From NCBI RefSeq assembly GCF_963674485.2, contig NZ_CAXXKW010000002.1: DNA of 24,000 nt; one strand, written 5' to 3'. This document shows positions 14,732-18,333 of the stretch, in pieces (position 1 is the stretch's first letter; each line of letters opens with the position of its first letter). Source of the stretch: an uncultured Methanolobus sp. GTDB lineage: Archaea > Halobacteriota > Methanosarcinia > Methanosarcinales > Methanosarcinaceae. Made by a program: the position numbers and the translations under genes. Below the pieces are notes generated by a model, which saw nothing but the letters and a program-made list of their open reading frames with translations, ran no database searches and was not told the origin of the DNA.

Positions 14732-15526
14732 ATGTCAAAAAATGAAACTCTTTCTGTAACGGATAATTTTTCTAATAAAAATATACTTGATCAACTTCCA
14801 TGTATGGTGATGGCAGTTGATCGAGATTTCAATATCCTTTCCCTTAATGCTGTTGGATCTAGGTGGCTTGGGGAGGATTTTGAGAACATTGAAGGTAAGA
14901 AATGTTATGACCTGGTGCGTTCCCCTCATTGTAATACCAACAATTGCCGTGTCAAACAAGCCATGGAAAACGGCAAGGTATATGTCTGGAGAAATGAGAT
15001 CACAGCTGCTGGCAAAACCTTCCCTGTGGAGTATACTGCGGCTCCATTGAAGGATAAAGAAGGTAACATTATAGGTGGAGTTGAATATGTCATTGACATA
15101 AGCGACAGGGTAAAGATCGAAGCAGAGGTCCGGGCTCACAGCCGTACTATAATGGAACTTTCAACACCTGTTATAAAACTCTGGGATGGCATCGTGATCC
15201 TTCCTCTTGTAGGGGTGATCGATACAATGCGTGCCCAGCAGATCATTGAGAACCTATTATCTTCCATTGTTGAAAATGAGGCAGCTGTGGCAATACTTGA
15301 CGTGACCGGTGTTCCAATGATTGACACAAGCGTTGCACAGCATATCCTGAAGACTGTAAGTGCCGGCAAAATGCTTGGTGCGGAAGTTATTATTACAGGT
15401 TTCAGTCCAAATGTTGCCCAGACAATTGTGACTCTGGGAGTTGACATGAGTGGTATAATTACTACCGGTTCATTGCGTGACGGTGTCTCAAAGGCTTTTG
15501 CTCTTGTAGGCAAAAAACTGGTATGA
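14732..15526 (+). CDS. rsbR: RsbR-like stressosome sensor: N-terminal Cys-rich PAS domain plus C-terminal STAS domain
   Basis: 264 aa. Residues ~15-125 have the PAS pattern (LPCMVMAVDRDFNILSLNAVG...GGVEYVIDISDR). Residues ~140-260 are an RsbR-type STAS domain (ELSTPVIKLWDGIVILPLVG, LDVTGVPMIDTSVAQHI, ITGFSPNVAQTIVTLGV). Thr199 and Thr231 sit at the expected phospho-acceptor positions. Confidence 0.85.
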   Translation: MSKNETLSVTDNFSNKNILDQLPCMVMAVDRDFNILSLNAVGSRWLGEDFENIEGKKCYDLVRSPHCNTNNCRVKQAMENGKVYVWRNEITAAGKTFPVEYTAAPLKDKEGNIIGGVEYVIDISDRVKIEAEVRAHSRTIMELSTPVIKLWDGIVILPLVGVIDTMRAQQIIENLLSSIVENEAAVAILDVTGVPMIDTSVAQHILKTVSAGKMLGAEVIITGFSPNVAQTIVTLGVDMSGIITTGSLRDGVSKAFALVGKKLV

Positions 15527-15542: not shown

Positions 15543-15908
15543 ATGGAAATACCAATGCTCAAACTGAAAAATATTCTGCTCACTTCTATACAGAGTGATA
15601 TGACGGACGATGATGCTCTGAAATATCAATCGGATGTTGTTTCAACCCTGGAAAAAAGTAGTTTAAAAGGTCTCATCATTGACATAACAGCAATGGATAT
15701 TGTGGATACTTTCATGGCCCGTGTAATCAACGAGACGGCAAGAATGGCACGCCTTATGGGTACCCGGGTTGTTCTGTGTGGTATGCAGCCAATGGTTGCA
15801 CTGACACTGGTTGAAATGGGGAGGGAATTAATTGGCGTTGACACTGCCCTTAATCTTGACAAAGGCTTTGACAAGCTTCTTGAAATGATTGAAGAAGGAG
15901 TTGAGTAA
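15543..15908 (+). CDS. rsbS: RsbS-like single-STAS stressosome scaffold protein
   Basis: 121 aa. IPMLKLKNILLTSIQ...IIDITAMDIVDTFMARV...VVLCGMQPMVALTLVEMG follows the RsbS pattern. Thr56 (VDTF) occupies the position of the RsbS phospho-serine. Confidence 0.85.
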   Translation: MEIPMLKLKNILLTSIQSDMTDDDALKYQSDVVSTLEKSSLKGLIIDITAMDIVDTFMARVINETARMARLMGTRVVLCGMQPMVALTLVEMGRELIGVDTALNLDKGFDKLLEMIEEGVE

Positions 15909-16311
15909 CATAGGCGAGAAAAGCATAGATCTCAAAATTGAAGATGATATTCTCATAGCCAGGCAGGTTGCCAGAAAAGAAATGGCAGAAATTGGCTTTG
16001 GTTCTGCAGACCAGACTCGCATGGCTACTGCAATCTCTGAGCTGACGCGCAATGTGATCAAATATGCAGGGGAAGGTGTATGCCACATAATTACGGAAGT
16101 TTCATCGGCAGAAATTAAGGTGAAAGTAGAGATCGAAGACTATGGTCCGGGGATTGCCGATCTGAATAAGGCCATGGAAGACGGATATACAACAGGTGGA
16201 GGTTTGGGTGCAGGTCTTCCCGGTGCAAAGAGACTTGTTAATGATTTTTCCATAGAATCACGTCCTGGATTAACAAAAATAAATTTAGAGATGTGTCGTC
16301 CTAATGTCTGA
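15889..16311 (+). CDS. rsbT: RsbT-like GHKL serine/threonine protein kinase (switch kinase)
   Basis: 140 aa. Signatures are ISELTRNVIKYAGEG (N-box), DYGPGI (G1) and DGYTTGGGLGAGLPGAKRLVNDF (G2 / RsbT signature). The start is TTG at 15889 (alternative TTG at 15901) and overlaps the rsbS end. Confidence 0.85.
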   Translation: MKKELSNIGEKSIDLKIEDDILIARQVARKEMAEIGFGSADQTRMATAISELTRNVIKYAGEGVCHIITEVSSAEIKVKVEIEDYGPGIADLNKAMEDGYTTGGGLGAGLPGAKRLVNDFSIESRPGLTKINLEMCRPNV

Positions 16312-16747
16312 AATTCTTGAATATACGTCTCCTGAAGATGGACTGAAGTTGATGGTAGAGGTAACGAATTTGTCCCATGTTGCAAATGTTCAGACCACTG
16401 TTCGCTCAATTGCAAAGAAACTAGGATTCTCAGAACTTGCTTCACATAAAGCCGCGACTTCTGCATCAGAGCTTGCTTCTAATCTGGTACATCATGCCAA
16501 TAACGGTGGCTCCATAATTATCAGGGAAATCAGGAAAAGCGGATACGTAGGAATTGAGATAGTATCTGATGATTCGGGTCCGGGTATAAAGGATGTAGAT
16601 CTGGCTTTGCAGGATGGGTATTCCACAGGTAACGGCCTTGGTTCTGGGCTGCCTGCAGTTAAAAGGATTATGGACGAATTAGAAATTACAGTAACAGGCG
16701 ATTCAAAGACCTGTATTAAAACCCGGTTGTGGTATTTATGCGAGTAG
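16304..16747 (+). CDS. Second RsbT/RsbW-like GHKL serine kinase paralog
   Basis: 147 aa. Signatures are ASELASNLVHHANNG, DDSGPGI and DGYSTGNGLGSGLPAVKRIMDEL. The ATG overlaps the upstream stop (ATGTCTGA, 8 nt). Confidence 0.8.
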   Translation: MSEILEYTSPEDGLKLMVEVTNLSHVANVQTTVRSIAKKLGFSELASHKAATSASELASNLVHHANNGGSIIIREIRKSGYVGIEIVSDDSGPGIKDVDLALQDGYSTGNGLGSGLPAVKRIMDELEITVTGDSKTCIKTRLWYLCE

Positions 16748-17310
16748 CAACAGAATCACGTTCTTTTAATGGTGATGTACATTGCGGGGATCAGTGTGAC
16801 TGGTGGCTTGAAGATGATACATTGACCCTTTGTATGATTGATGGGCTCGGCCATGGCAAACCTGCCGAAGAAGCAGCAAAAGCTGCTATTGATTATGTTT
16901 CCTGTCATCTGCAGGAGTCTCTTGGCACATTGTTCTCAGGATGTGACAAAGCTATAAGGCAAACAAGAGGTGTAGCCATGAGCATCGCCAGAATCGATCA
17001 GAATGAAGGCAGTCTCGAGTATGGGGGTATTGGGAATACTCGCACAATGATATGTGGTGAAAAATCATCTAATCTTCCTTCCAGCTGGGGAATTGTTGGG
17101 GGTGGATTCAGACATTTGCATATTGAGAGGGCAAACATTTCTCAGGATGACCTTCTGATAATGTGGACTGATGGAATTCCTGAAAACATCACGATTTCGT
17201 CGTATGATTCCTACATGCTACAGGATGAACAACAGCTGGCAAAAAAAATACTGGATGATCATGGGCGTATGACTGATGATGCAACCATATTGGTGTATTT
17301 GAAGGGGTGA
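16738..17310 (+). CDS. rsbX: RsbX-like PP2C/SpoIIE-family serine phosphatase
   Basis: PP2C metal-binding contexts are present: GDVHCGDQC, MIDGLGHG, MWTDGI and TDDATILV. The size (~190 aa) fits RsbX. I prefer ATG 16738, which overlaps the upstream stop by 10 nt, over the GTG at 16729. Confidence 0.85.
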   Translation: MRVATESRSFNGDVHCGDQCDWWLEDDTLTLCMIDGLGHGKPAEEAAKAAIDYVSCHLQESLGTLFSGCDKAIRQTRGVAMSIARIDQNEGSLEYGGIGNTRTMICGEKSSNLPSSWGIVGGGFRHLHIERANISQDDLLIMWTDGIPENITISSYDSYMLQDEQQLAKKILDDHGRMTDDATILVYLKG

Positions 17311-17394: not shown

Positions 17395-18333
17395 ATGAGG
17401 TCTGAAGACCTGGGCTATGAGCTTGTCAGGTTTAATGTCCCTCCTGAAGATATTGTTGAACTACATGAGGTGGCGATTTCCAGGCTGGCTACTGACCTCC
17501 CTGCCAAAAGTATGATGGAATCTGTAGGCTTCCTTTCCACACCACTTGTAGAACTCATGATGGCATATGGTCTTGCGTTCAGGCAATGGATAGAGGATCT
17601 GGAAAAAAGCAAACAAGAACTCATTATGTATGCTCAGGAGTTACAACATTCCAATGAGCTGAAAGAGCTTTTTGCCGACATTATGCGCCATGATCTCCTG
17701 AATCCTGCTTCTCTGGTCAGCGGCTTTGTTTCTATTTTGCTTGAATGGGAGGAAGATGAAAAGAAAAAGTCCCTGCTTACAAATATAGACAAGAGCAACC
17801 GAAATCTTGTATACATTATAGAGAAAGCAGCAGAATTTGCCAAACTGGATTCTGTGGAAGAGCTGGACTTTTCTACCCATGACCTTGATTTAATTCTGCG
17901 GGATATTGTAGATACTTTCATGCCCAAGTTCGACGAAAATGAAATAACAGTGGGCATGAGTACTGACGGATCACACCTGGCATTGGTAAATCCTCTAATT
18001 GAGCAGGTTTTCATTAACCTCATTTCCAATGCCATAAAATATGGTCCAAAAGGTGGTCATGTGGAGATATTCATGTCGGATGCCGGGGATGAATGGCAGG
18101 TTAATGTGAAAGACAATGGCAGTGGCATACCTGAACAGGATAGGGAAATGATCTTCACCCGTTTCTCACGATTGGACAAGGTTAACAAAGGCAGTATCAA
18201 AGGTACAGGTCTTGGTCTTGCAATTGTGCACAAGATAGTTACTCTTCATAATGGTAGTGTTGGCGTGGATAGTAATTATCCTGAAACCGGTAGTACTTTC
18301 TGGGTCCGGTTTAATAAGGCCCCGACAATTTAG
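17395..18333 (+). CDS. Sensor histidine kinase with an N-terminal RsbU-N-like (RsbT-docking) domain; the true start is probably upstream of the first ATG
   Basis: H-box is FADIMRHDLLNP, N-box LISNAIKYGPKGG, G1 VKDNGSGIP, G2 GTGLGLAIV. The N-terminal ~85 aa (…VPPEDIVELHEVAISRL…MMAYGLAFRQ) resembles the RsbU N-terminal helical domain. That similarity continues into 17311-17394, upstream of the first ATG. Confidence 0.85.
   Translation: MRSEDLGYELVRFNVPPEDIVELHEVAISRLATDLPAKSMMESVGFLSTPLVELMMAYGLAFRQWIEDLEKSKQELIMYAQELQHSNELKELFADIMRHDLLNPASLVSGFVSILLEWEEDEKKKSLLTNIDKSNRNLVYIIEKAAEFAKLDSVEELDFSTHDLDLILRDIVDTFMPKFDENEITVGMSTDGSHLALVNPLIEQVFINLISNAIKYGPKGGHVEIFMSDAGDEWQVNVKDNGSGIPEQDREMIFTRFSRLDKVNKGSIKGTGLGLAIVHKIVTLHNGSVGVDSNYPETGSTFWVRFNKAPTI

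Follow-up and report, generated by a model that had tools for sequence, protein, structure and literature searches.

Domain architecture of the RsbR-like protein

The stretch of DNA considered here (the window, 24,000 nucleotides of contig NZ_CAXXKW010000002.1 from an uncultured Methanolobus sp.) carries at positions 14732..15526, on the + strand like every other feature located below, an rsbR-like gene that heads a stressosome operon. Its product of 264 residues, delineated from the open reading frame, Pfam matches and homologues, combines an N-terminal PAS domain bearing a triad of cysteines with a C-terminal STAS domain of the RsbR type. The central finding is that the triad is invariant among RsbR homologues and that the PAS domain carrying it is homologous to that of OrpR, a regulator that senses redox state through an iron–sulfur (Fe-S) cluster. 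An Fe-S input to an archaeal stressosome is thereby suggested.

Pfam assigns residues 19-127 to PAS_4 (E 1.8e-16) and residues 150-238 to STAS (E 1.5e-14). The PAS core, also outlined by an AlphaFold2 model, corresponds to 14786..15112, and the STAS domain, as aligned with that of Listeria RsbR, to 15179..15523. The STAS half finds the RsbR chains of the solved stressosomes of Listeria, Bacillus and Vibrio at E ~1e-32 (6qcm, 7b0u and 7o0i, with values from 1.7e-32, reached with Listeria RsbR, to 3e-31), and YtvA, a LOV-STAS protein, is matched across both the PAS and STAS halves (E 2e-14). Orthologues of 264-266 residues align over 100% of the length of the protein. In the alignment with Listeria RsbR, the phospho-acceptor positions T165 (15224-15226) and T199 (15326-15328) fall in IDT and DT motifs and are presumably equivalent to T171 and T205 of Bacillus subtilis. 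Conservation was counted throughout on 79 full-length RsbR homologues with a cysteine-bearing PAS domain, sharing 41-82% identity with the query. Position 165 is Ser or Thr in 79/79 of them and position 199 is Thr in 78/79, and the protein is therefore considered a working RsbR. On sequence grounds, it is predicted to be the RsbR sensor subunit of an archaeal stressosome.

Conservation of the cysteine triad

Translation of 14732-15526 yields Cys24, Cys58, Cys67 and Cys72, with no other Cys in the protein, together with His66; the corresponding codons start at 14801 (C24), 14903 (C58), 14927 (H66), 14930 (C67) and 14945 (C72). This confirms the layout C24, C58-x8-C67-x4-C72 plus H66 given by a first-pass annotation, in which these residues were viewed as a possible metal, Fe-S or redox input. 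The interval 14801-14947, to which the cluster had been assigned, extends exactly from the codon of C24 through that of C72, and the peptides LPCMVMAV and GKKCYDLVRSPHCNTNNCRVKQAMENG are both found in the translated RsbR. In a simulation with four Cys distributed randomly over 264 residues, three of them fell within 15 residues in ~3% of trials. Clustering alone is therefore a weak argument, and the real evidence has to come from conservation.

C58, C67 and C72 (14903..14947) are each kept in 79/79 RsbR-type homologues, which come from Methanolobus, Methanosarcina and Desulfobacterota, and they are proposed as a metal or Fe-S ligand set from this conservation, from the alignment with OrpR and from modelled contacts. 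H66 (14927..14929), the candidate fourth ligand, is His in 71/79 homologues, the other residues found being Leu in three sequences and Cys, Glu, Lys, Gln or Val in one sequence each. Two acidic residues accompany the set, namely D60 (14909..14911), located two positions after the first Cys (Cys1+2) and Asp or Glu in 69/79, and E118 (15083..15085), a family-specific Glu of the GGVE sequence on strand I-beta that is present in 74/79 and faces the site according to a modelled contact. C24 (14801..14803) behaves differently. Thr occupies this position in 70/79 homologues and Cys in 4/79, found in Methanolobus only, and the residue lies outside the modelled contacts; C24 is thus a lineage-specific Cys and probably no ligand. 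The idea that four Cys and H66 are conserved together accordingly holds fully for the triad and largely for H66, and the proposal of C24 as fourth ligand has to be abandoned. The cysteine motif is absent from the more distant RsbR-like proteins of the alignment (P0084-P0120), which have other PAS types.

At position 73 (14948-14950), Cys replaces Arg in 8/79 RsbR-type homologues, creating a CC pair with C72. This Cys73 is a possible extra ligand in the lineages concerned.

Relationship to the PAS domain of OrpR

OrpR (DVU2106) is a sigma54 activator of Desulfovibrio/Nitratidesulfovibrio vulgaris Hildenborough whose PAS domain carries a [4Fe-4S] cluster that is redox-sensitive and is converted from [4Fe-4S]2+ to [3Fe-4S]1+ upon mild oxidation; redox sensing is lost in the C52S/C61S/C65S mutant, and D/E54 has been put forward as a possible fourth ligand (PMC8359166). 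Orthologues of OrpR were found by scanning genomes for the published 17-nucleotide operator palindrome GGGCGYRTTTTGCGCCC. In a metagenome-assembled genome of Desulfovibrio sp., the operator adjoins the gene of a 441-residue PAS-sigma54 activator with C52, E54, C61 and C65 (numbered from the start Met). In a Nitratidesulfovibrio genome, it adjoins orp-type ParA/ferredoxin genes, and the OrpR orthologue (66% identical) has C52, D54, C61 and C65 as well as two flanking palindromes. The retrieved orthologues match the published numbering and description of OrpR. As a side observation, the scan for the 17-nucleotide operator sufficed to recover the regulator gene itself: on contig L121 of Nitratidesulfovibrio sp. 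the operator occurs at 1406 and 2937, on either side of the orpR orthologue, and L031:4864-4880 is an operator too.

The RsbR and OrpR PAS domains are related by several measures. BLASTP returns E values of 6e-16 and 9e-16 at 27% identity, and the alignment pairs C58 with C52, D60 with D/E54, C67 with C61, C72 with C65 and E118 with E113, with a gap of one residue between the second and third Cys. Profile comparison by hhalign gives a probability of 99.5-99.6%. A hidden Markov model (HMM) of the family scores OrpR at 82-94 bits and the cysteine-bearing PAS copies of the Methanolobus genome at 101-163 bits, versus 27-60 bits for the PAS domains of this genome that lack the Cys. Homology between the two domains is, at the level of sequence and profile comparison, solid.

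The kinship has limits. When 62 PAS domains were placed in a maximum-likelihood tree, OrpR clustered with further Cx8Cx3C domains (support 100/99), next to a sister group with four Cys named ‘CADLC’; the RsbR PAS belonged to the other main clade (99/98) and, within it, to a clade specific to RsbR (100/100). Given the Cx8Cx4C spacing and the separate clade, the RsbR PAS is therefore a member of a sister subfamily of OrpR rather than its orthologue. Both proteins are headed by an N-terminal PAS sensor in which the three Cys occupy the same fold positions, Cys1+2 is acidic and strand I-beta carries the Glu of GGVE, and both belong to strict anaerobes. They differ in spacing (Cx8Cx3C in OrpR, Cx8Cx4C in RsbR), in the Ile that OrpR has where RsbR has His66, and in output, which is a sigma54 AAA+ activator in OrpR but a stressosome STAS domain in RsbR.

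Structural models of the putative metal site

AlphaFold2 modelling of residues 1-135, with an alignment of 58 sequences, gave a confident canonical PAS fold (predicted local distance difference test score 92.1) with five strands and the C, D, E and F helices. Its elements are strands A-beta (25-30) and B-beta (34-38), helices 40-46, 50-53, 58-61 and 73-80, three long strands and a C-terminal helix (124-134). C58 opens E-alpha (58-61), C67 sits in the E–F loop and C72 comes just ahead of F-alpha (73-80), so that in the model the triad lies in the usual cofactor region of PAS domains. This placement, together with the invariance of the triad, bears out the first-pass view that the cysteine cluster belongs to the PAS cofactor region of a true RsbR. 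C24, which had been located within the first beta-strand, is modelled just ahead of strand A-beta (25-30).

Structural comparison of the model by Foldseek retrieved generic PAS, LOV, DosP and NifL structures only (template modelling score ~0.7, identity <25%). Sequence searches of the PDB, whether with the single protein or with a profile of 58 sequences, retrieved generic PAS chains devoid of the motif, and neither these searches nor Foldseek returned a solved structure that contains it.

Co-folding of the RsbR PAS with 4Fe-4S by ESMFold2 (score 0.36) predicted contacts with residues 27, 29, 33, 58-59, 62, 64, 66-68, 72-74, 101 and 118. For the Nitratidesulfovibrio OrpR PAS (score 0.34), the predicted contacts involve residues 21, 27, 52-53, 56, 58, 60-61, 65-67 and 113, which are homologous. 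The controls gave 0.30 for Fe3+, 0.30 for Ni, 0.00 for Ca and 0.07 for an unrelated protein, and since the method gives no verdict for ligands and does not distinguish between the cluster and Fe3+, Ni or Cu, these scores point only to a modelled metal pocket common to the RsbR and OrpR PAS domains, with C24 outside the pocket.

A wider subfamily of cysteine-triad PAS domains

An exhaustive search with residues 1-135 returned 102 representative proteins at E<1e-30. The motif is present in 115 of the 148 best matches, in two to five tandem copies in 93 of them, and can be written C-[YF]-[DE]-x5-[HD]-C-x4-C, with the consensus C-[YFH]-[DENS]-L-F-K-T-P-[HD]-C-x-T-x-x-C. In an alignment of 58 domains, the invariant residues are C58, C67, C72, G115 and E118, and no others. 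Across 231 motifs of the family, the residue preceding the second Cys is mainly His (131) or Asp (53), then Leu (18), and an acidic residue (Asp or Glu) stands at Cys1+2 in 164. Of the 47 motifs without His or Asp before the second Cys, 13 have an additional Cys at Cys1+4, as opposed to 2 of the 184 motifs with one of them (Fisher p 2e-8, a value that overstates the case because the 231 motifs are not phylogenetically independent). This alternation of His and Asp, with an additional Cys often found at Cys1+4 when the residue is hydrophobic, suggests a site of four ligands whose fourth ligand is exchangeable.

Among 63 proteins with a cysteine-triad PAS that were scanned for other domains, 36 are methyl-accepting chemotaxis proteins (MCPs), a good many of which contain HAMP arrays, and a STAS domain is present in 2. 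As delimited by its motif, the cysteine-triad domain is a large PAS subfamily, often in tandem and mostly in soluble chemoreceptors, and is not peculiar to RsbR. Besides rsbR, the same genome encodes one further carrier of the domain, outside the window (G000:C2:1083809-1087636, L126). It is a soluble MCP of 1275 residues with a HAMP_2 array and two tandem cysteine-triad PAS domains, whose motifs are CYDHYKTNVCKTDSC and CYELFDTLHCNTENC and the second of which is 40% identical to the RsbR PAS. With cysteine-triad PAS domains in both an MCP and RsbR, one type of sensor would therefore serve chemotaxis as well as the stressosome of this archaeon.

A 2023 census of PAS domains and its supplements (PMC10468136) have NreB as sole Fe-S entry and do not mention OrpR. 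Literature searches with the motif spelled CX8CX4C or CX8CX3C gave unrelated matches only (zinc fingers, ferredoxins and a table of dehalogenases), and a look-up in the ESM Atlas gave only generic PAS clusters. The Cx8Cx4C subfamily with its His/Asp alternation is large, uncharacterized and not annotated in the census.

Tandem arrangements were also seen in the RsbR type. P0005, P0006 and P0007, metagenome proteins of 381-385 residues, have two PAS domains before STAS, and in P0006 the query PAS matches both, which indicates that stressosome subunits, too, can carry the sensor duplicated in tandem.

Comparison with NreB and characterized stressosome sensors

NreB, the O2/sulfide sensor kinase of Staphylococcus and Bacillus, has a PAS domain with either a [4Fe-4S] cluster or a [2Fe-2S] cluster held by three Cys; its motif is C63-x2-C66-x11-C78 and no His, Asp or Glu is found <8.7 Å from the cluster (PMC13478379). 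Its Fe-S Cys lie between strand B-beta and helix F-alpha, thus in the same PAS region as the RsbR triad, the distance from first to last Cys is comparable (15 residues in NreB, 14 in RsbR) and the cluster of Bacillus licheniformis NreB relies on three Cys and a labile fourth ligand. The Cys pattern, on the other hand, is Cx2Cx11C (with or without a further x2C) instead of Cx8Cx4C, and the output of NreB is a histidine kinase. Membership of the NreB family, compared here by the published motif, was consequently rejected on account of this pattern and since NreB is not the closest relative; the likeness noted in the first-pass annotation persists as an analogy only.

The inputs known in stressosomes are non-heme globin, heme globin or LOV domains (PMC9237108, PMC8717448). 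Bacillus and Listeria RsbR have a non-heme globin, Vibrio RsbR is an O2 sensor with a heme globin and YtvA is a LOV-STAS protein. The archaeal RsbR shares with these sensors the RsbR-type STAS domain, the Ser/Thr phospho-acceptors and the gene order rsbR-S-T-X, and with YtvA it also shares the fusion of PAS to STAS. It differs from them by its cysteine-triad PAS, which replaces the globin or the flavin LOV domain, and the system as a whole differs from the characterized ones by its archaeal host, without sigma factor, and by its output, a histidine kinase with an RsbU_N domain. A LOV input of the YtvA type was considered and rejected, given that NCRFLQ is not found at C58 and that the match with YtvA reflects general similarity of PAS and STAS domains. 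No characterized stressosome sensor uses a cysteine-triad PAS input, and the proposal of a different input class is borne out.

Operon and distribution

The rsbR gene is followed by a tight series of genes, beginning with an rsbS-like gene for a single STAS domain (15543..15908; Pfam STAS, E 8.6e-11) and a gene for an rsbT-like GHKL serine kinase (15889..16311; HATPase_c and HATPase_c_2). A second small GHKL kinase (16304..16747; HATPase_c_2) is encoded between rsbT and the gene of an rsbX-like PP2C/SpoIIE phosphatase (16729..17310; SpoIIE, E 1.8e-6). The series ends with a histidine kinase (17395..18333; RsbU_N, HisKA and HATPase_c) that includes the RsbT-docking domain RsbU_N and is likely the output of the module.

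The same gene order is found in Methanosarcina sp. KYL-1, where a homologue leads the R-S-T-X genes and an RsbU_N histidine kinase closes the series, and the bacterial homologue, found on 21 contigs among those examined, likewise leads an R-S-T-X module. Modules vary in some details. The slot of the second GHKL kinase is occupied in Methanosarcina sp. KYL-1 by a reading frame of 96 residues without Pfam match (L125:6569-6859) and is empty in the bacterial module L124 (4320-7794). Instead of a histidine kinase, this bacterial module has a PAS-PAS-SpoIIE phosphatase as its output, after which come a DUF6272 protein, SiaC and a protein with a guanylate-cyclase domain.

The nearest named relatives of the RsbR are from Methanolobus (81-82% identity) and Methanosarcina (61%), followed by many proteins of Desulfobacterota and metagenomes (41-61%). 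Within Methanosarcinaceae, the gene has a patchy occurrence (within its genus, 3 of the 8 remaining genomes have it, and few others do), which fits an accessory module acquired horizontally. The named hosts, namely Methanolobus, Methanosarcina, Desulfobacterales, Desulfamplus and Desulfocurvus, are all anaerobes, a restriction that rests on few named RsbR-type homologues, the relatives of chemoreceptor type being nearly without organism names. Modules of the rsbRSTX type have been noted in ‘some archaeal species’ (PMC9237108); a literature search for stressosomes in methanogens found no papers.

Proposed mechanism and alternative explanations

The explanation favoured here, with somewhat better than even confidence, is that C58, C67 and C72 hold an Fe-S cluster, probably [4Fe-4S], with H66 as a labile fourth ligand, and that the domain is an O2 or redox sensor passing its state to STAS. 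The Fe-S and redox aspects are supported by homology to the OrpR PAS, an indirect line of evidence. This homology upholds the Fe-S/redox input considered in the first-pass annotation, with a zinc site as rival.

The analysis establishes the architecture, the operon, the conservation of the Cys and their place in the cofactor region of the PAS domain, as well as kinship with the OrpR PAS; the binding of a cluster, the type of cluster, the nature of the signal and the entire relay are inferred in the mechanism proposed below. C58, C67 and C72 would build a buried metal site in the PAS domain, with E118 and D60 beside it, and the fourth ligand would most likely be H66, leaving one iron site that is non-cysteinyl and labile. 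O2 or a rising redox potential would oxidize or degrade the cluster, possibly in the manner of the [4Fe-4S]2+ to [3Fe-4S]1+ conversion of OrpR, and this change would alter the region of E-alpha and F-alpha as well as strand I-beta. The signal may then travel via the C-terminal helix (residues 124-134) and the linker, reaching the STAS domain within the core of the stressosome, where a change in STAS would affect both phosphorylation by RsbT and the freeing of this kinase. RsbT, once free, would finally dock on RsbU_N in the histidine kinase whose gene lies downstream.

Several facts weigh against this proposal. The RsbR PAS and OrpR belong to different well-supported clades and their spacing is off by one residue, so that the cofactor could differ, and the biochemical evidence comes from OrpR only. 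In 8/79 homologues, one of the residues L, C, E, K, Q and V takes the place of H66, and single Fe3+ or Ni ions co-fold with a score (0.30) nearly as high as that of the cluster (0.36). Moreover, Cys3His is also a classic zinc site.

This last point leads to a rather unlikely alternative, according to which C58, C67, C72 and H66 bind one Zn2+ without any Fe-S cluster, the metal either stabilizing the loop between E-alpha and F-alpha or being released upon oxidation in a thiol-zinc redox switch. Cys3His with short spacers is a common ligand set for zinc, the presence of H66 in 71/79 homologues and the His/Asp alternation in the family suit zinc equally well, and in the models this site also accepts single metal ions, with scores close to that of the cluster (0.30 versus 0.36). 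A zinc-binding PAS has a precedent in WalK, which uses other ligands at another site (PMC6624279). Yet the sole characterized homologue, OrpR, binds [4Fe-4S] by the same three Cys, and the OrpR clade binds its cluster with Ile at the position of the His, which implies that three Cys suffice for Fe-S. In addition, structural zinc normally keeps four ligands, but here the three Cys are invariant and the fourth position varies (His in 71/79 RsbR-type homologues; His, Asp, Leu and others across the family), and the named hosts are all strict anaerobes.

A metal-free thiol switch is very unlikely; in such a switch the three neighbouring Cys would be joined reversibly in disulfides, or otherwise modified, when oxidative stress sets in, and the PAS conformation would shift. 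Such switches are a common type of oxidative-stress sensor and the models bring the three Cys of this sensor domain close to one another, but a disulfide requires two Cys only and three are invariant in all members of the family; the fourth position, with its His, Asp or Cys, furthermore co-varies with the triad, and the homologue OrpR carries a cluster.

Least probable of all, to the point of being hardly credible, is that the PAS pocket houses a heme ligated by Cys or His, or some other organic cofactor, as in FixL, DosP or the MsmS type of Methanosarcina, for although the best structural matches include the heme PAS of DosP, the flavin LOV domains and the PAS of NifL, and although H66 and a Cys could in principle be axial ligands, those structures are <25% identical and all lack the Cys motif, RsbR is without CxxCH, the sequence around C58 is GKKCYDL and not NCRFLQ, the signature of the flavin-adduct Cys of LOV domains, and heme does not need three invariant Cys. 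The comparison with the heme or GAF sensors of Methanosarcina (MsmS type) made in the first-pass annotation found no support, and membership of that family was rejected.

Within the Fe-S explanation, a bolder and distinctly doubtful extension is that the non-cysteinyl iron may be an exchangeable site for a small molecule such as sulfide, nitric oxide or O2, comparable to the labile ligand of NreB, rather than a sensor of bulk redox alone, and that the Cx8Cx4C domains with His or Asp as fourth ligand may constitute a large undescribed family of Fe-S PAS, far larger than the NreB type. If this were true, the archaeal stressosome and many chemoreceptors with tandem PAS domains would be ligand-specific sensors of gas or sulfide.

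Implications

Stressosomes, archaeal rsbRSTX modules and Fe-S PAS domains (OrpR) were already known separately; what is new is the cysteine-triad PAS as a stressosome input. The signals perceived by stressosomes are known for very few of them, YtvA responding to blue light and the heme globin of Vibrio to O2, and an Fe-S RsbR would add a third. For a host that is a strict anaerobe, oxygen is the most relevant stress. Beyond the stressosome, the characterization of one Cx8Cx4C member would annotate a large set of sensors, including the tandem chemoreceptors of anaerobes.

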